DNA of 64,000 nt from Methanocaldococcus indicus. GTDB taxonomy: Archaea > AGJL01 > Methanococci > Methanococcales > Methanocaldococcaceae. The translations under genes were made by a program, and so were the position numbers. Below are positions 25,862 to 64,000 of the stretch, in pieces (position 1 is the stretch's first letter; the number at the start of each line of letters is the position of its first letter). Under the pieces are notes generated by a model. The model ran no database searches, was not told where the DNA came from, and saw nothing but the letters and a program-made list of their open reading frames with translations. The stretch spans positions 256,001 through 320,000 of the forward strand of contig NZ_CP186926.1 in assembly GCF_049554935.1 (NCBI RefSeq), given 5' to 3'.

Positions 25862-26430
25862 AATTCAATTACAAGATGGTCTTATTTTAACAACTCCTGA
25901 TGAGCATCTTTTATTTGCCAACTTAATTTCCATCCTCCAAGAGGCACGATTTTAACATATAAAAGCTTTAAATTTAAGTTGTGTTAAGACTTACTTTCCA
26001 TCCTCCAAGAGGCTCGATTTTAACCAAATCCAAAGTAAAGAACTTAAAACCACTATCAAATTCAGAGTTTCCATCCTCCAAGAGGGTCGATTTTAACTTA
26101 CAATATTGAGAGCAGTTCCTAAAAAAGAAAGTTCCATCCTCCAAGAGGCTCGATTTTAACGAAACTAATGAATTGATTTTAGAACATGAAGTTGTGTTCC
26201 ATCCTCCAAGAGGCTCGATTTTAACGGAGAATTACATAACTTCTGAGGATATAGAAATTCCAGGTTCCATCCTCCAAGAGGCTCGATTTTAACAACACTC
26301 ATATTGCTGTTAGTAACAATAATTGTAGGAGGTATGTTCCATCCTCCAAGAGGCTCGATTTTAACGTAGTTCCACATATAAATTATGGGAGTGATAAAAA
26401 GTTCCATCCTCCAAGAGGCTCGATTTTAAC
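25862..26430 (-). CRISPR. CRISPR array 1: 9 repeats (30 nt; + strand consensus KTTCCATCCTCCAAGAGGCTCGATTTTAAC), 8 spacers of 33-43 nt
   Basis: Repeats start at 25862 (divergent, array-2 type), 25927, 25995, 26068, 26131, 26196, 26264, 26336, 26401; degeneration at the left end, leader on the right. Confidence 0.97.
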
Positions 26431-43408: not shown

Positions 43409-44316
43409 ATTTCCATACCGGGACGGTCTTATTTTAACGGAGTGGAAAGAGTCCCCGCTGAGATAAACATAGAACACAAATTTCCATACCGGGACGGTCT
43501 TATTTTAACTTGTTCAAGAATGAATCATATCTATACAGTGAACCTACATTTCCATACCGGGACGGTCTTATTTTAACCTTAGTGTATTGTAATAGGAATT
43601 ATTGATTCATTTAATTTCAATTCCGAGACGGTCTTATTTTAACGATATATCATAAAGTGCCTGTGGTTTATAGAGATGAGAGATTTCAATTCCGAGACGG
43701 TCTTATTTTAACCATCTTGGACACAAATACACTTTTGCCTTCTTAATTTATTTCAATTCCGAGACGGTCTTATTTTAACAAGGATATTGTTTATAAGGAT
43801 TTGTATAAATTATGTGATATATTTCAATTCCGAGACGGTCTTATTTTAACGACACCTTCACATACAAAGAATATGAGATAAAGAAAACATTTCAATTCCG
43901 AGACGGTCTTATTTTAACATTGATGAAGAAGGGGATATTTATTTGTTTTATAGAGATTTCAATTCCGAGACGGTCTTATTTTAACTTTTAACGAAGGAAT
44001 TTTAGATTATGCTGGATTGAGATTGATTTCAATTCCGAGACGGTCTTATTTTAACTTAATGAATAATGTAAAAATTGCAAATCTAACTAATTTCAATTCC
44101 GAGACGGTCTTATTTTAACATAAAATGCTCACTAACATCAAAAATTTTTATTTTATATTTCAATTCCGAGACGGTCTTATTTTAACTTTATATCAAATAA
44201 AAGAAGGGTATAATTGTAATGATTTCAATTCCGAGACGGTCTTATTTTAACTTTTTGTATTTTTTCCATTTTTCAAGTGCTTCAAAATTTCAATTCCGAG
44301 ACGGTCTTATTTTAAC
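43409..44316 (-). CRISPR. CRISPR array 2: 14 repeats (30 nt; + strand ATTTCAATTCCGAGACGGTCTTATTTTAAC x11, ATTTCCATACCGGGACGGTCTTATTTTAAC x3), 13 spacers of 34-41 nt
   Basis: Repeats start at 43409, 43480, 43548, 43614, 43683, 43750, 43821, 43889, 43956, 44026, 44090, 44157, 44222, 44287; ATTGAAAT 3' end on the minus strand; leader on the right. Confidence 0.98.
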
Positions 44317-57085: not shown

Positions 57086-57565
57086 TTATCCTTTAAAATT
57101 CCAAATTTCATCTCCAACATAATGAATATTTTTTATAGCTTTTCCTTTATCTTTTTCTTTAATTTCTTTTGCAGAGAGTAAAGCTATACCAACACAAATA
57201 GGTTTTTTATGCTTCTCATCTAAAACAACTACTACATCCCCTTCTTCAATATCTTCATCAATCTCTACAATTCCAGGAATCATCACGTCAGCACCATTTA
57301 TTAAATATTTTATTGCTCCCATATCAATAATTACTTTTTTAAAGTCAGCTGGATACTTAGTTAGAAGATTTATTGTAGGGAAGATTTTATCATCAATCTT
57401 TATAGCTATTGGTTCTTTATCAGAAAGAATTAAATCAAATTTATCAGTTATAACCAACTCCAAACCTTTCTTTGGTAAAATATCATCTTTAAAAATTTTA
57501 GCCAACTCTTTTTTAATATTTTTTATCTCTTTCTTACTTAGATAAAACCTTTTTTTTATTTCCAT
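57086..57565 (-). CDS. PUA-domain RNA-binding protein (DUF1947/MCT-1-like)
   Basis: R..LSKKE, FPT, VIIDMGAIKYLINGADVMIPGI, KGKAIKNIHYVGD. Confidence 0.9.
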   Translation of the reverse strand: MEIKKRFYLSKKEIKNIKKELAKIFKDDILPKKGLELVITDKFDLILSDKEPIAIKIDDKIFPTINLLTKYPADFKKVIIDMGAIKYLINGADVMIPGIVEIDEDIEEGDVVVVLDEKHKKPICVGIALLSAKEIKEKDKGKAIKNIHYVGDEIWNFKG

Positions 57566-59041
57566 CTATCTACCCTCTTTTTGTATATTTTCTAAGATAT
57601 TAATAGCTTTTATACTATTTTTATCTAAATTTCTTATTAAAAGTAATTCTTTTTTCCACTCATTTGGATTTTTACCTCTCCATACAGAAAGTATTTCACC
57701 AACATATTTTAAGTTTATTTTACCAAAAACAACAGCAGTTGTATATATAAAATCTCTAACATTTTCCCAAGTTAAAAAATCTTTTGGTTTATCAAAAGAT
57801 ACATATATAGGAATTATATTTGTTAAAGCATCTAAGTTTGAGAAAAATTCTTTATCAGATGTAATAACTAAAAGCTTACCATTTTTATCTTTTAAAAACT
57901 CTAAAAATGACTCTTTAATTTCATTATCTCCTTTTCCTTTGTAGGGAATTATAATACAATTTTTATTTTTTAAATATTCAACCTGAGACAATCCTAATTT
58001 AAATACTCTATCTTTTGGAGATGGTTGATTTTCAAAATCTTTATCTTTTGGATTTTTTATTTTATAAAATTCAGTGGAGAGTTCATTACTAACACTTTCT
58101 GATAGCACAAAATTTGGAAGTATTTTTTCTTTATTATTCTCTAAAAAATCAATTAATTTCCTTGGAATTTGATTTATTAGAGCATTAGTATCAAAGGTTA
58201 TATAGTAAGTTTCTTTCTCCTTAAATTTATTTAATAAAGAATTAAAAAATTCTTCTTCATTCAACCAAGTTTCAAAATCATAAGTATATTTAACTTCATT
58301 TATAGAATTTAAAATATTGTTTATAAAATTACCATAGAGCTCATCATCTAATTTAATATTTTTATTTACTTCAACTTTTGCTTTATTGTCATTTAATAAA
58401 GTTATTTTTGCAAATTCTTGGCCATTTACTTTTATTTTTGTAGTATGTTTATCAAACAAATACATATTGTTTAAAATTGCCATTAAATTTTCTCTATTAA
58501 CTTTTTTGTTATCTTTACCATCAATTTTTAAAGGATTTTTATCTATTTTCTCATTTTTTAGCCAACTATTAAATTCATAAAGCTCTTGAATAGAAAATGG
58601 AATTAAGAATAATGGATAATTCATATATTTTAAATCTTTTAGATGTAAATAATAAACTTTATCACATTTATATTTTCCTTCTACTCCCTCTAACCCAGCA
58701 AATAATGAAAATGCACTCATAAACTTTCTTCCAGGAGTTATATCTATGGCAATTTCATTGTTTTTTAATTTTTCATTTTTTATTATTTTTTTTAAAGCAT
58801 TGGAGAATTCCTTAATATTTTCCTCACTAACTTTATAATCTTTGTTTATTTCAACTTTAAAATTGTATTCATTAGATAATATATTTACCCACTTTTCTAA
58901 TTTCTCTAAATTGTGTTTAACTTTATCATTCCATAAAAAATAAATTTTATCTGGAAGATAGCTATCTCTAACAATTGCAAACCATAAGGTATTAAAAACT
59001 GCATAAGGTGAAGTCCCCACAGTAGTTATCCAAATTTTCAT
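57566..59041 (-). CDS. CRISPR-associated CARF (Crn1-like)-PIN fusion protein
   Basis: N-terminal VGTSP and DITPGRKFMS CARF motifs; C-terminal PIN with FDTN (D284), E320, GD (D372), TSD (D396); last cas gene in the type III-A operon. Confidence 0.8.
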   Translation of the reverse strand: MKIWITTVGTSPYAVFNTLWFAIVRDSYLPDKIYFLWNDKVKHNLEKLEKWVNILSNEYNFKVEINKDYKVSEENIKEFSNALKKIIKNEKLKNNEIAIDITPGRKFMSAFSLFAGLEGVEGKYKCDKVYYLHLKDLKYMNYPLFLIPFSIQELYEFNSWLKNEKIDKNPLKIDGKDNKKVNRENLMAILNNMYLFDKHTTKIKVNGQEFAKITLLNDNKAKVEVNKNIKLDDELYGNFINNILNSINEVKYTYDFETWLNEEEFFNSLLNKFKEKETYYITFDTNALINQIPRKLIDFLENNKEKILPNFVLSESVSNELSTEFYKIKNPKDKDFENQPSPKDRVFKLGLSQVEYLKNKNCIIIPYKGKGDNEIKESFLEFLKDKNGKLLVITSDKEFFSNLDALTNIIPIYVSFDKPKDFLTWENVRDFIYTTAVVFGKINLKYVGEILSVWRGKNPNEWKKELLLIRNLDKNSIKAINILENIQKEGR

Positions 59042-59050
59042 ATTTTTCCC

Positions 59051-60244
59051 TTAAATTTTTTCTAATAACTTTTTACAAATATTAATAATCTCTTTTGCAT
59101 TCTCTTTATAATTATTTAGGTTCTCTAAGTTTTTTCTTCTACCAGCATGAGATAATGTATTTCTTGTATTTTGAATTAAATTCCAGGCTCTAACTAAATC
59201 TTCTTTTATACCTTTTTCTAAAATAATTTTTTCTATTTGAGTAACTTCTTCTTTAATATTATTATCTATTTTTTTATTTTCATCAATTAATTTATATATT
59301 GCATTTTCAGCTATCATTCTACTATTTTCATAATCTAACCAATTATCTGTTAAATTTGCTAAATATAATATATAATCAATTATCCACTCTCTAATAGATT
59401 GATAAAATTGAGGAATTAATTCAATTGAATACTGATACTCAGCCACCTTAAATAACTTTATTAAAATGTCTTTATTTAACTCAGATATGTTGTTTCTTCT
59501 TCTAATTTTATATCCAAAATCTGTAAAACTAAAAATATCCTCTTTTAAGTATTCAACAGGTGGTAAGTTAGAGCTAATTTCTTCAATTAATTTCTTTTTG
59601 TTATTAAGTTCATTAGCTTTTTCTAATGTCCATAAGTTGTGGTTGTAGTATATGGAGTTAGATAGATTAATAAGTGTATTTACAAAAGATTTGTTATTTA
59701 TTAGATTTTTAAATTCATCAGCTTTCCCATATTCTTTTAAACTTTTAGTTGCAAAAATCCAATTAGATAGTTCTATAGCTTTTGTTACTTCAATTATTGG
59801 AGAATATCCTAATTTTCTACTAACTTCATAAGCTCCATAATATACTCCACTTATCTTTATATTTTTAGTTTCTTTTAAAAACAACAAAATTAAAAACCCT
59901 AAAAAAGGAAGATATCTTAAACTATGAGTAATATCTAAGATAATCTCTTTTTCTTTTGGAACACTTTCATAGATATTTTTAAAAAGTGTCCATAAATCTT
60001 TTTCTTCTTCTACATTGGGAATATCTACAACATTAATTCTTACATTCAGATTATTTAACAAATTTTTTAATTCATTAAGATTTTTATGCTCTTTAACTTC
60101 AGGAGTAGCATAAACAATAACTTCATCAATCTTAAAATGTTTAACTAATACTTCTTGAATAAATGGAGTTCTATATTCTTTATCATCAATTTTATATGTA
60201 GTTTCTTGATAGTTTCCAGTTCCTAAAAATGTTAAGAGTATCAT
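59051..60244 (-). CDS. csx1: CRISPR-associated Csx1 (CARF + HEPN ribonuclease)
   Basis: FLGTGNY, LDITHSLRY (DxTHG-type), YYGAYE, HEPN RNTLSH. Confidence 0.88.
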   Translation of the reverse strand: MILLTFLGTGNYQETTYKIDDKEYRTPFIQEVLVKHFKIDEVIVYATPEVKEHKNLNELKNLLNNLNVRINVVDIPNVEEEKDLWTLFKNIYESVPKEKEIILDITHSLRYLPFLGFLILLFLKETKNIKISGVYYGAYEVSRKLGYSPIIEVTKAIELSNWIFATKSLKEYGKADEFKNLINNKSFVNTLINLSNSIYYNHNLWTLEKANELNNKKKLIEEISSNLPPVEYLKEDIFSFTDFGYKIRRRNNISELNKDILIKLFKVAEYQYSIELIPQFYQSIREWIIDYILYLANLTDNWLDYENSRMIAENAIYKLIDENKKIDNNIKEEVTQIEKIILEKGIKEDLVRAWNLIQNTRNTLSHAGRRKNLENLNNYKENAKEIINICKKLLEKI

Positions 60245-61398
60245 TCTATCCCCTCTATTTTTATCCATCCCAATGGTTTTTTAGCTACTAATCCTCTACT
60301 TTGAATATATCTAACATAAAAGGTCTTAGTGGATGGAAATTCATAATAATTTCTTGCTTTTCTCCAAGCATTAAATGAATTTCTATTATTTTTATATAAA
60401 TTTAAATAAAATCCTTTTATTGTATTAAATAAAGATAGACTTTTATCATTTTTCCAAAATAACAAATATAATGTCTTACTAATAAATCCACCAGCAAATC
60501 CTAAATTCAAAAATATAGAATTTGAGTTATTTATTTCATCTAATAAATCTTTATAGAAGTTAATTATTTCCTTATTATATCTCTTATTTAATTCATACTC
60601 AACAATTGTTTTAGAGAAGTTATTACAGATATCTTTTAAGAGTTCATAACCATCTTTATAGTTAGTTTCTAACATCTCATTTACTTTTTTTATAAATTCA
60701 TCCTCAACTTTAATTTTAAATTTAAATTTTCCTTCATAGTATGCTTCCAAATTTATTGGAATTCCTTTTGTAGTCCTTGTTCCTTTCAATCTTTTAGTTT
60801 GGATAAATCTAAACTTTTTCTTAGTTAGTTCTAAACTATCAGAAACTTTTAAATATTTAAAAAAATCATTTTGTATATTTTTTTGAATTCTTCCTTTTTT
60901 TATATTTATTTTTCCTTCAATAGCTTTAACTTCTGCTGCTATTCCTTTTTCATGAATTGGAATTTCTCTACTGTTAATTATTTTCAACAATTCAGAAAAA
61001 TGATTATCATAGTATTTAAATAAATAAGCTGTTCTTATAGCCCCTTTTATGGAACTTCCTGGAATATAATAAGAGTTATTTGTGGTTATGAACTTTTTTA
61101 CTCTTGTCCTACTGTTTGATTTAATTTCTGAATATATTTCTTTAACAACATAATCTTCTGGGTTTAAATTAAATTCTTCTAAAAGTTCTTTGGCATTAAT
61201 TTCTACCCTATTCCCAAAAGTATTTTGTAGTATAAGCTCACTAATTTCATTTATAGCATTTATATCTCCTAAATCTTGAAGAGCTTTTTCTAAATCTACT
61301 ATTTTAGCTTTGTTATTTTCTATATAGTAATCTAACTGAGTGTATTCATCCCCACAGCCTATAAAAATTGGTGATAGCAATTCAGCTTTTAAAATCAT
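60241..61398 (-). CDS. csm5: Type III-A RAMP Csm5
   Basis: LSPIFIG.G, YIPGSSIKGAIRTA, LKVSDS, LGFAGG...KT, PLGW. Confidence 0.9.
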   Translation of the reverse strand: MILKAELLSPIFIGCGDEYTQLDYYIENNKAKIVDLEKALQDLGDINAINEISELILQNTFGNRVEINAKELLEEFNLNPEDYVVKEIYSEIKSNSRTRVKKFITTNNSYYIPGSSIKGAIRTAYLFKYYDNHFSELLKIINSREIPIHEKGIAAEVKAIEGKINIKKGRIQKNIQNDFFKYLKVSDSLELTKKKFRFIQTKRLKGTRTTKGIPINLEAYYEGKFKFKIKVEDEFIKKVNEMLETNYKDGYELLKDICNNFSKTIVEYELNKRYNKEIINFYKDLLDEINNSNSIFLNLGFAGGFISKTLYLLFWKNDKSLSLFNTIKGFYLNLYKNNRNSFNAWRKARNYYEFPSTKTFYVRYIQSRGLVAKKPLGWIKIEGIE

Positions 61399-62452
61399 CG
61401 TTCCACCTTTTAGTTGGAAGTAAAATAGGTTTTCCATGAGTATATACAGAATGAGATTTTTCTTTAATATTTGGAGTAGTATCTACAACATTTCCAACAA
61501 AATTATTTTTAACAATACTACCTTCTGAGAGTGCTAAAATTGTCTTTTTCCTTTTTGTTAAATATTTAAAATATGTTGATGAGTAAATATATCCTCCTAA
61601 CTCTAAAAGTTTGTAATATTCAATATTTTTAATATCTTCCTCCTTAGGAATACCTACACCTAAAAGCATTTTATATTCACAATCTTCATTTTTATCAAAA
61701 ATTTCTTTTAAATTATTAGGAATATCTTCTATCTCAACAGTTTCAAAAAATCCAGCTCCAGAAGTTCTTTCTCCACCTAAACCTTCATCTTCAATTAGTT
61801 TAATACTTGCATCAATTTTTTTTGTTGTATCTTTATCTAACCCATTATAATCAATTAAAAAATAAAATTCTACATTGTTATTTGGTTTGAAAAACTCTAC
61901 ACTATAAAGCTGTCCTTTTTCTAACTCCAAAGTAATATTTTTTATTCTATCCATAGCTATTTTATGCTCTATTTCTTTTCCAAAGAGTGACTCTTTATTA
62001 ATCATATTTCTTATTTTGTCTATTTCTTTATCTGTTAGTATTATATTCCCATATTTATTTTCAAGAATTTCTTTTAAATTATTATGCCAGTAGTTCTCAT
62101 CTTTTTCATTATTTAAAAGCTCTTTATAAAATCCAATTGAGAAATAACTAATCTTTTTTACATCTTTTGGCTTTATTCCTTCCATTATATGCTTATTATC
62201 TAAGATATAAAAATATGGATGCTCTGGTTTTGGAATTAAAAAAATATCTTCTATCTTTGGATATAATGATGATAATCTTATATTTTTTATTTTTTCTATG
62301 TCCAAATCATTAGAGACATAAAGTTTAACATAGTTATTTATTATGGTTGAAAAAATTGTATTTGAGTGTAAAAAGTAAGAAGTGCTTTCCAAAGAACCTG
62401 TTCCAAAATGGAATTTGGAGTTTATTTTTGGCTTTAAAACAACAACTTTCAT
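61382..62452 (-). CDS. csm4: Type III-A RAMP Csm4
   Basis: FHFG, HSNT, LSSLYP, PKP, DEGLGGERTSGAG, EGS. Confidence 0.92.
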   Translation of the reverse strand: MKVVVLKPKINSKFHFGTGSLESTSYFLHSNTIFSTIINNYVKLYVSNDLDIEKIKNIRLSSLYPKIEDIFLIPKPEHPYFYILDNKHIMEGIKPKDVKKISYFSIGFYKELLNNEKDENYWHNNLKEILENKYGNIILTDKEIDKIRNMINKESLFGKEIEHKIAMDRIKNITLELEKGQLYSVEFFKPNNNVEFYFLIDYNGLDKDTTKKIDASIKLIEDEGLGGERTSGAGFFETVEIEDIPNNLKEIFDKNEDCEYKMLLGVGIPKEEDIKNIEYYKLLELGGYIYSSTYFKYLTKRKKTILALSEGSIVKNNFVGNVVDTTPNIKEKSHSVYTHGKPILLPTKRWNDDFKS

Positions 62453-62491: not shown

Positions 62492-63283
62492 TTATTGTTT
62501 AGAGTATGTCCAAATCATATTATCTTTATCTTTATTATCTAATAATTCATTTAATAGTTCATCTAAATCATTAACAACTTTCGAGTCTTTAATAGTTTCT
62601 TTACCTTCATAATACTCTCTTGGTTTATTTATCCATTTCATTTCTTCAAATTTAATTTTACCATAACCTCTACTTCCACTACCACCTAAGTAGTCATCTT
62701 CTAACAACTTCATACCTTCAATAAATTTTTTAATTAGTTCTATATCATTTTCATTATAGATGTTAAAAACAATTTCAAATTTAAATTTACTTCCAGCTAC
62801 AACCCTCTCTGTATTTCTAACTCCTCCTTTAACTGTTGTTCCTTTTATTCTGTCTATTGTATTCTCTACTTTTATTTCTAAATAGTCATAATGATTTTTA
62901 CCTTCATCTGGCTCTAAATAGGCATCTCTAACAATTACTCTAACAGGATCTTCTATATTGTTAGATTGATGAGGTCCAAATAATTTACATATTTCACATA
63001 ATCCACATTCACATGGTTTTCCATCATTTTTAGGTTTTTTTTCTTTTTTATTATTTTCGTCTCTTTTATAAGTTCCATATACTTTTTCTAATAAAGCTCT
63101 AATTTTTCCTTTGAGAGAACTTCCAGGAATTAAAACATTGTCGAATTTATCTTTTATAACAGGGTTGTCAGTACCTCCAATTTTTAAAGTTTCTTTTGTT
63201 CCACCAATGTGCATTCCAGTTAATAACCTAATTTTTCCTTCTAATATGAGTTTTCCTTTTAAAGTTTGTTGATTTTCAGCCAT
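62492..63283 (-). CDS. csm3: Type III-A backbone RNase Csm3
   Basis: TGMHIGG, IGGTDNPV (catalytic Asp), IPGSSLKGK, K.ENTIDR, LGGSGSRGYG. Confidence 0.95.
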   Translation of the reverse strand: MAENQQTLKGKLILEGKIRLLTGMHIGGTKETLKIGGTDNPVIKDKFDNVLIPGSSLKGKIRALLEKVYGTYKRDENNKKEKKPKNDGKPCECGLCEICKLFGPHQSNNIEDPVRVIVRDAYLEPDEGKNHYDYLEIKVENTIDRIKGTTVKGGVRNTERVVAGSKFKFEIVFNIYNENDIELIKKFIEGMKLLEDDYLGGSGSRGYGKIKFEEMKWINKPREYYEGKETIKDSKVVNDLDELLNELLDNKDKDNMIWTYSKQ

Positions 63284-63299
63284 TTATTATCCCTCTTTT

Positions 63300-63701
63300 T
63301 TATTGTGATTTAGCATAAATCTTGTGATAAGCAACAACTGCCTCAAAGAATGTCTTAAAACTTTTGAATTTATTTATATCTTGATTAATTTCATCAATAA
63401 TTTTACTAAAAGTTCCTGTTAATTTTTCTAAAGCTTCTTTTTTATTTCTATTAGTCTCTTTTCCATAAGTATATGCCAATTTTGGTTTTAGAAGAACTAA
63501 CTTCATATACCAATTATCATCTTTTTCATCAATCTTTAATACATAGTCATAAAATTCTCTAAATTTTGATGCTGATATTTGTTCATACTCTTTTGCCAAT
63601 CTTTCTGCAATTTCTATTATTTTATTTGCATTATCTTTGTTTATATTAAGAATTTCTTTGATTTCATTATCACTCAAGATACATTTTCCAATATTTGGCA
63701 T
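63300..63701 (-). CDS. csm2: Type III-A small subunit Csm2
   Basis: [26 protein letters not shown]. Confidence 0.92.
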
Positions 63702-64000
63702 TTAACCACCTCTATTTCTAAGTTCTACAATTTTGGCAGATACTTTTAAGTCATTAAAGTTTAGATTTATTTTCTTTTCAGGTTCTAACTTGCTAAATAT
63801 AACTTTCTTAGTTTTTTCTTTTATATATTCTTTTAAAAACTTGACATCTTTATTTAGCTCATTAGTTTTATTGTCTTTATAGTTCCTATGTAGATAGTAG
63901 AGAATTCTCCAATAGTATGGAATATTTACAATTATTTCTTTATTATTTTCTTTAACAACATTCTCCAATCTTAAACCAACAATTTGAGCAATATGTAATA
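63702..64000 (-). CDS. cas10: Cas10/Csm1 C-terminal end (truncated by window edge)
   Basis: Frame open to the window edge (LHIAQIVGLRLENV...WRILYYLHRN...ELRNRGG*), abutting csm2. Confidence 0.7.
   Translation of the reverse strand, partial: LHIAQIVGLRLENVVKENNKEIIVNIPYYWRILYYLHRNYKDNKTNELNKDVKFLKEYIKEKTKKVIFSKLEPEKKINLNFNDLKVSAKIVELRNRGG

Follow-up and report, generated by a model that had tools for sequence, protein, structure and literature searches.

The window analysed here is a stretch of 64,000 nucleotides (nt) from Methanocaldococcus indicus (NCBI RefSeq assembly GCF_049554935.1, contig NZ_CP186926.1, positions 256,001 to 320,000 of the forward strand), and the gene in question, referred to below as the CARF-PIN gene, occupies window positions 57566-59041 on the minus strand as an open reading frame (ORF) with an ATG start, 491 amino acids (aa) and a stop codon; the plus-strand reading of the same positions contains many stops. 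The order on the minus strand is cas10-csm2-csm3-csm4-csm5-csx1, a type III-A (Csm) CRISPR operon, followed by CARF-PIN as the last gene, which starts 9 nt past the csx1 stop and has GGG 6-9 nt 5' of its ATG. A first-pass annotation of this DNA had likewise placed a 491-aa gene at the end of a cas10-csm2-3-4-5-csx1 run, leaving the strand unstated, and the ORF and TIGRFAM matches agree with it. The product is probably an RNase of the PIN type that is activated by cyclic oligoadenylate (cOA), most likely cyclic tetra-adenylate (cA4), and that belongs to the CARF_m1 family and serves the III-A system as a second ancillary effector beside Csx1. The gene and the regions of its product, two of which were placed with the help of the solved structure 9jxw of SiRe_0806 from Sulfolobus islandicus, are as follows:

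57566..59041, minus strand: CARF-PIN gene, CARF_m1 family (PADLOC PDLC01973 E 4.9e-157, residues 1-478; AlphaFold2 mean predicted local distance difference test (pLDDT) 90.2)
58562..59041, minus strand: CARF domain, residues 1-160, bearing motifs I, G9-T10-S11, and II, G104-R105-K106 (structure and profile matches, invariant columns)
58217..58549, minus strand: middle alpha/beta domain joining CARF to PIN, residues ~165-275 (model secondary structure; within the 9jxw superposition)
57770..58216, minus strand: PIN domain, residues ~276-424, with D284, E320, D372 and D396 (fold matches and invariant acidic residues)
57569..57769, minus strand: C-terminal helical/beta region, residues 425-491 (within the 9jxw superposition; invariant columns)

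The other genes of the cassette were identified by the following matches:

59051..60268, minus strand: csx1 (CARF-HEPN, TM1812 type), the adjoining effector (TIGR02221 E 1.2e-32; PADLOC CARF2--CARF_HEPN E 1.2e-77)
60241..61437, minus strand: csm5 (TIGR01899 E 1.5e-71)
61382..62452, minus strand: csm4 (TIGR01903 E 4.3e-56)
62492..63283, minus strand: csm3 (TIGR02582 E 7e-70)
63300..63701, minus strand: csm2 (TIGR01870 E 1.5e-22; Pfam Csm2_III-A E 3.7e-26)
63702..64000, minus strand: 3' end of cas10/csm1, a gene that runs past the window end (L038:702-3389, TIGR02578 E 2.4e-162)

The protein encoded by the whole cas10/csm1 gene in the genome has 895 aa and carries both GGDD (residue 637) and an HD motif in its N-terminal part, and the Csx1 of the window has an intact R-x4-H motif that begins at residue 369. 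On its 3' side the CARF-PIN gene is followed, with a 0-nt spacer, by a universal archaeal gene for a PUA-domain protein (window 57086-57565, TIGR03684 E 1.7e-54), into which read-through transcription could occur, and on the outer side of cas10 (L038:3433-4829) lie genes for a PRK04334 protein and a metal-dependent hydrolase. Since housekeeping genes are found on both sides, the III-A cassette looks like a compact insertion of seven genes. No antitoxin-like small ORF was detected beside CARF-PIN, its neighbours being csx1 (5') and the PUA gene (3').

Investigation of the translation revealed all of the CARF and PIN motifs at the residues that had been claimed for them, namely T6-T7-V8-G9-T10-S11-P12 and D100-I-T-P-G-R105-K106-F-M-S109 in the CARF domain and F283-D284-T285-N286, E320, G371-D372 and T394-S395-D396 in the PIN domain. 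Their conservation was examined in two alignments, A1, consisting of 19 full-length relatives (30-57% identity) from a word-indexed search, which come from Methanotorris, Methanocaldococcus, Pyrococcus and Thermococcus and, where named, are all called 'hypothetical protein', and A2, with 26 sequences down to 19% identity, including 13 more distant full-length proteins from an exhaustive search for CARF-PIN homologues (242 matches at E <= 1e-3). Residues T7, G9, S11, D100, T102-A110, F283-N286, E320, E324, D372, T394 and D396 are invariant in A1, in which W425, R429, D430, W454, G456 and K457 of the C-terminal region are also conserved, and T102, G104, K106, Y131, P148, D284, E320, R345, D372 and D396 are invariant in A2, where S11 is not. 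The invariance of the motif residues among homologues identifies them as conserved features and not as chance matches. Regarding domain databases, the only Pfam match of the target protein was a sub-threshold one to Cas_APE2256 (16.7 bits against a cut-off of 24.8 bits), and the NCBIfam scan gave no match, so that neither library covers the family; the 19 relatives had weak Pfam matches to the CARF families Cas_NE0113 (17/19) and Cas_APE2256 (16/19) and to PIN_12 (4/19). Pfam HFX_2341_N, matched by five of the 19, leads to the Haloferax protein HFX_2341, a Csa3-like regulator of 308 aa in which a CARF domain is joined to a helix-turn-helix domain; the relatedness is confined to CARF, and this protein was rejected as a functional model.

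An AlphaFold2 model of the 491-aa protein, built on alignment A1, has a predicted template modelling score (pTM) of 0.90 alongside the mean pLDDT given above, with no segment below 50; in this model the N-terminal part adopts a CARF fold and residues 278-422 a PIN fold. The five best chains in a Foldseek search of the PDB all belong to SiRe_0806 (entries 9jxx and 9jxw), with whole-model alignments at E 3.6e-18 to 1e-15, the best being the cA4 complex 9jxx (E 3.6e-18, TM 0.59/0.69); the next matches cover the N-terminal domain only and include Can2, Cad1, Cdn1, Card1, Can1 and Csm6 as well as the ring nucleases Sis0455 and Sso2081, with Foldseek probabilities of 0.9-1.0 for the CARF matches. 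Independently of Foldseek, VIA superposed 391 of the 411 residues of the 9jxw chain on model residues 1-491 (Z 25.1, root mean square deviation (rmsd) 3.6 A, 19% identity), the next match having Z 15.1. CARF domains matched model residues 1-160 with Z 10.5-15.1, eleven or more solved ones having Z 12.0-15.1, among them Card1, Can2, SSO1393 and Sso2081 (Z 12.6-15.1), and PIN domains matched residues ~271-422 with Z 8.0-10.3, including those of Methanocaldococcus jannaschii 3i8o, Thermus thermophilus 3ix7, Nmd4 (8rdd), EST1A/SMG6 (2dok), AF0591 (1o4w) and Utp24 (5yz4). These PIN scores are only moderately above the background of the tool, yet they cover the whole domain and coincide with the invariant acidic residues. 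The architecture proposed in the first-pass annotation, CARF fused to PIN, is thus borne out by the fold matches, as it is by the full-length profile match described below.

Homology to solved structures was reached through profiles or fold search and not by direct sequence comparison, as a phmmer search of the target against PDB sequences gave a single chance match (a cysteine desulfurase, E 0.48). Profile A2 searched against the PDB had 9jxw as its best match (E 3.9e-11), with matched stretches in the CARF/linker and PIN regions and with the start of the middle domain aligned to SiRe_0806. Chains of TAL effectors (3ugm, 6jw5, 6jw0) at the top of or within the A2 and A3 profile lists are an artefact, since their 34-residue repeats sum many weak matches to profile positions 22-84, each with an i-Evalue above 10.

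Regarding family assignment, the PADLOC model PDLC01973, named 'CARF_m1--CARF_PIN', matches the target over profile positions 1-459 of 465, the model PDLC01068 ('CARF+PIN') matches at E 2.5e-112, and CARF_m3--CARF_PIN at only E 3.9e-12; judged by these profiles, the target is a clear member of the CARF_m1 CARF-PIN family, which had been defined bioinformatically beforehand. SiRe_0806, deposited as a 'PIN domain-containing protein' without ligand (9jxw) and with cA4 (9jxx), shares its domain order with the target from end to end, and both have a D-I-T-P-G-R-K motif, a Y-L-H-L-like linker and the PIN motifs G-D and T-x-D, but identity is only 16-19% and the target is longer by ~60-80 residues. 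At the position of G-T-S in motif I of the target, the hidden Markov model (HMM) alignment tentatively places S-D-K of SiRe_0806, with a low posterior and a possible shift by one residue. SiRe_0806 probably belongs to the sister family CARF_m3, given the 16-19% identity, the far better score of the target on CARF_m1 and the match of the CARF_m3 model to a Sulfolobus acidocaldarius control. This control alone was matched when the CARF_m3 model PDLC01982 was searched at E <= 1e-20 against 400 genomes of the phylum of genome G004, none of which gave a match.

The first-pass annotation had further presented the protein as a candidate for an uncharacterised type of effector, a claim that does not stand: the architecture is already catalogued and the target adds a member to it, not a new kind of effector, in view of the dedicated PADLOC model, an earlier listing and a solved relative with reported biochemistry. 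Shah et al. (2018; PMC6546367) list CARF+PIN accessory proteins (cluster 104 / Msed_1167) with type III cassettes, and the 2025 CRISPR-Cas classification counts PIN RNases among the cOA-activated effectors. As described where their paper is cited, Wang et al. (2025; NAR 53:gkaf744) report on a CRISPR-associated PIN nuclease whose dimers are made to dimerise by cA4 and which is activated in this way; of two preprints citing it, one describes activation by oligomerisation that depends on cA4 and the other a CRISPR-associated PIN fusion shown to cleave RNA. The crystal structures 9jxw and 9jxx of SiRe_0806 are most probably those of Wang et al. (2025), judging from the title, the release date (July 2025), the organism and the authors.

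Several better-known proteins resemble the target in part. Csx1 and Csm6 likewise combine a CARF sensor with an RNase in type III operons and are activated by cOA, as is predicted for CARF-PIN, but their nuclease is HEPN (R-x4-H) where that of the target is PIN, metal-dependent and with an acidic active site, and the neighbouring Csx1 is of type CARF2, unlike the CARF_m1 target. VapC toxins share the PIN fold with its four conserved acidic residues; the target, however, has no antitoxin gene and would be controlled by a fused ligand sensor in place of a VapB partner, and the PIN structures most like its own come from archaea and eukaryotes (3i8o, Nmd4, EST1A, Utp24) and not from VapC. ST0035 of Sulfolobus tokodaii is described as likewise joining CARF to a PIN toxin domain and as encoded with type III cassettes.

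The CARF domain has a further likeness to the ring nuclease Crn1. According to Du et al. (2023), Sso2081 has Gly9-Thr10-Ser11 as motif I and Gly104-Arg105-Lys106 as motif II, its cleavage or binding is impaired by S11A, R105A and K106A, and Can2 and Card1, which lack 'GTS', do not cleave cA4. The target has G9-T10-S11 and G104-R105-K106 at the same residue numbers, in agreement with the numbering proposed at first pass, and these residues are invariant in the 19 close homologues except T10; profile A1 positions 4-127 align essentially gap-free with residues 4-125 of Sso2081. The CARF profiles match Sis0455 (E 1.5e-10) and Sso2081 (E 1e-8) directly after SiRe_0806, and the solved Crn1 proteins (Sso2081/Sis0455, CARF_m13; 7ygh, 7z55) share the CARF fold, 7ygh superposing with Z 12.6 and rmsd 2.6 A over 141 residues at 21% identity. 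Crn1 is, however, a stand-alone protein of ~180 aa with a C-terminal helical insert, and the target has middle, PIN and C-terminal regions in addition. In the Crn1 profile test the target remained below the curated Cas_APE2256 cut-off, and at 491 aa the fusion is longer than the <250 aa that the ring nuclease screen of Hoikkala et al. (2025) sets as its length criterion.

These likenesses raise the possibility of a self-limiting bifunctional enzyme, in which the CARF domain would cleave cA4 in the manner of Crn1, act as the ring nuclease of the system and reset Csx1. This would extend the reading of the product as a cOA-activated RNase and seems somewhat less likely than not. Apart from the two motifs and the profile matches, it is favoured by the search of the M. 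indicus genome for Crn1 (PF09651), Crn2 (PF08960), Crn3 (PF09620) and Csx15 (PF09623), which found none at cut-off (Csx14, Csx16 and Csx20/Crn4 not being searched), the only Crn1-like and Csx15-like matches below cut-off being the target itself, and by the S-D-K of SiRe_0806 against G-T-S in the target, low though the posterior of that alignment is. On the other hand, S11 varies in the wider family and in stand-alone CARF_m1 proteins, the helical insert of Sso2081 with Tyr133 has no demonstrated counterpart in the target, the motifs serve ligand binding too and their presence is therefore no proof of catalysis, and Csx1 may itself degrade cA4. As read from the alignments, the G-T-S motif may mark CARF_m1 off from the characterised SiRe_0806, and self-limitation by cA4 cleavage, which would set CARF_m1 apart from that enzyme, is plausible.

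A survey of fused and split CARF and PIN homologues near cas10, which the first-pass annotation had suggested, showed that the fused form is often linked to CRISPR and that a split pair in Thermococcales is mostly without such a link. Within Methanococcales the CARF-PIN gene was found in 5/40 genomes, M. indicus included, and it stands at the end of a III-A operon in two of the four relatives (G076 and G052), the other two (G075 and G045) being unlinked. The order in G076 is cas10-csm2-5-csx1-CARF-PIN as in the window; in G052, cas10-csm2-csm3-csm4-csm5 is followed directly by CARF-PIN (L049:10342-17991), the 19.9-kb stretch yielded no Csx1 homologue, and CARF-PIN appears to be the only CARF effector of the operon. 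The contig of G075 is short and its upstream ORF of 383 aa has no Csx1 match.

Full-length copies are present in 18/99 Thermococcales genomes, and a CRISPR array or cas match lies within ~10 kb at 14 of the 15 full-length loci that were fetched out of these 18, with clear cas10-csm genes at four (L056, L060, L061 and L064) and a Csx1 homologue adjoining CARF-PIN at L063; at L052 neither an array nor a cas match was detected within that distance. Among 37 further loci from a species-level genome collection, many of which without a CRISPR-Cas element are contigs shorter than 6 kb, such an element was found at ten. RAMP genes adjoin CARF-PIN in L006, L012, L015, L018 and L020, CRISPR arrays lie inside L006, L007, L012, L015, L018 and L020, Csx1 homologues occur in L006 and L017, and homologues of Cas1 or Cas6 occur in L003, L006, L009, L012, L015 and L019 (confirmed by Pfam in L003 only, the others following from BLAST clustering). 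The loci with Cas10 and RAMP genes or CRISPR arrays beside CARF-PIN include those of Methanoperedens and Asgard archaea (L012, L015, L018 and L020). Detection of cas genes in the flanks used phmmer with few queries and had limited sensitivity; the Csm proteins of the window alone recovered few neighbours in the 37 distant loci, for which the whole-genome search with RAMP families was more informative.

In the closest relative in the species collection, G045 (L051:9658-11169, the same record as L001; 55-56% identity), the CARF-PIN gene is split by an in-frame TGA near residue 131 into pieces of 131 aa and 372 aa, and no cas match was found near it, the genes nearby encoding a TPR protein and a DNA polymerase of family B. 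Loss of function as a pseudogene, a natural split or an error of assembly could each account for this copy.

From the operon, the two folds, the conserved residues and the relatives of the gene, we infer the following course of events. Binding of a target transcript by the Csm complex would lead Cas10, whose cyclase motif GGDD is intact, to make cOA, and this would bind to the CARF dimer in a composite pocket built around G9-T10-S11 and G104-R105-K106. By analogy with SiRe_0806, the ligand would shift the oligomeric state towards a dimer of dimers, by which the PIN site D284/E320/D372/D396 would be assembled or unmasked, and the PIN domain would then cut RNA and so slow the infected cell. The likely ligand is cA4, as the first-pass annotation had also supposed, because the closest solved structure (9jxx) is bound to it.

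A number of observations weigh against this reading. The analogy partner SiRe_0806 shares 19% identity with the target in the structural alignment and is probably of another minor family, CARF_m3, and its link to Wang et al. (2025) is an inference about a paper known through its citations. The PIN domain of the target is recognised by neither Pfam nor NCBIfam at E <= 0.1, and literature searches turned up no biochemistry for the target or any CARF_m1 member. For ST0035, called a 'CARF-PIN toxin', Shah et al. (2018; PMC6546367) report a weak cA4 crosslink and no additional RNase activity induced by cA4. Regarding genomic context, the split pair of Thermococcales has a CRISPR array within 10 kb at 1/20 loci, and a whole-genome search for RAMP (type III) matches in 13 haloarchaeal genomes with CARF_m1 homologues found none (0/13).

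The behaviour of ST0035 also speaks for another explanation, in which the target is mainly an off-switch of the Crn1 type, its PIN domain being inactive, structural or engaged in housekeeping RNA processing, and Csx1 is the real effector. The Crn1 motifs of the target, the adjoining canonical Csx1 with its intact R-x4-H and the failure to detect another ring nuclease among the four families searched in the genome would fit such a role. The four acidic PIN residues and R345 are, however, invariant in 26 sequences down to 19% identity, which argues for a working active site, the G052 operon has CARF-PIN and no detectable csx1, and the characterised relative is described, in the citing texts, as a nuclease activated by cA4. 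This explanation is accordingly considered improbable, and an activated PIN RNase remains the preferred account of the gene.

The forms that are split or lie outside CRISPR loci bear on what the CARF domain senses. A set of 167 proteins, picked by similarity to the target and so no census, was sorted with domain HMMs cut from A1: 113 match through CARF and no other part (median 162 aa), 36 join CARF to one or more of the middle, PIN and C-terminal parts (32 of these including PIN), and 18 have middle, PIN or C-terminal parts without CARF. In Thermococcales, a match to the N-terminal domain only is found in 83/99 genomes, and in all 20 sampled complete genomes a DUF2284 gene, a CARF_m1 gene of 164 aa and a PIN gene of ~350 aa stand in the same order. 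The 164-aa gene matches PDLC01971 at E 2.1e-78, and the PIN gene next to it on the same strand, ~350 aa from stop to stop, matches Pfam PIN_4 above cut-off (E 3.1e-7) and, at E 7.6e-18, the CARF_m1--CARF_PIN model in its C-terminal half. With the few queries used, no cas match was found near the split pair (0/20), and the pair appears to consist of core genes and not to be an accessory of CRISPR. These trio loci are L067:8709-10679 (G155) and 19 others, L068-L086.

Of the 13 haloarchaeal genomes, nine have CARF-PIN in full length and four a match to its CARF part alone, and no CRISPR-Cas element was detected at any of their loci (L022, L025-L031, L033-L037), where the conserved neighbours are a UvrD-PD-(D/E)xK helicase-nuclease (L022, L029, L033) or an Orc1/Cdc6 protein (L027, L031, L034, L035). 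The occurrence of homologues where no type III system was detected means that the ligand need not always be a cOA made by Cas10. Taken further, the CARF domain of the target itself might sense a ligand other than the Cas10 product, such as RNA fragments ending in a cyclic phosphate or another nucleotide, and the place in the operon would reflect recent capture of a general stress RNase. The split pair beside DUF2284, the many Thermococcales genomes with the N-terminal domain only and the haloarchaeal genomes are in line with this, but the fused form is repeatedly linked to CRISPR (in Methanococcales, Thermococcales, Methanoperedens and Asgard archaea), cA4 is the ligand in the closest solved structure, and the few phmmer queries limit what the missing cas matches can tell; such an explanation seems very unlikely, more so than a mere off-switch.

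The gene brings a methanogen member, encoded in a clean III-A cassette of seven genes, into an effector class with only one structurally studied and distant representative. As CARF_m1 keeps both Crn1 motifs, the family could reveal how the action of a PIN effector is limited in time, and an operon of the G052 type, with CARF-PIN apparently as its sole CARF effector, would offer a simple system for PIN-mediated type III immunity. The split pair of Thermococcales and the haloarchaeal forms raise the question of what CARF domains sense there, which may outweigh the gene itself; the module forms outside CRISPR would suggest that something other than a type III system makes an oligoadenylate-like signal. 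The most far-reaching view would combine the two lines, with CARF_m1 proteins as bifunctional enzymes (a PIN RNase switched on by cA4 and switched off by its own Crn1-type activity, which would be the sole ring nuclease of the III-A system and reset Csx1) and with the module outside type III sensing a non-CRISPR oligoadenylate-like signal; this is rather unlikely as a whole, slightly more so than bifunctionality in the target by itself.

Regarding CRISPR arrays, one lies in the window ~13 kb from the operon:

43409..44316, no strand assigned: CRISPR array, its 30-nt repeat present in at least 12 copies at a spacing of 64-71 nt

A second array in the window, at 26131-26430, has a different repeat family, and a k-mer scan of the genome found ten array-like runs (at least three repeats, two repeat families) on the chromosome and one on a second contig of 22 kb.

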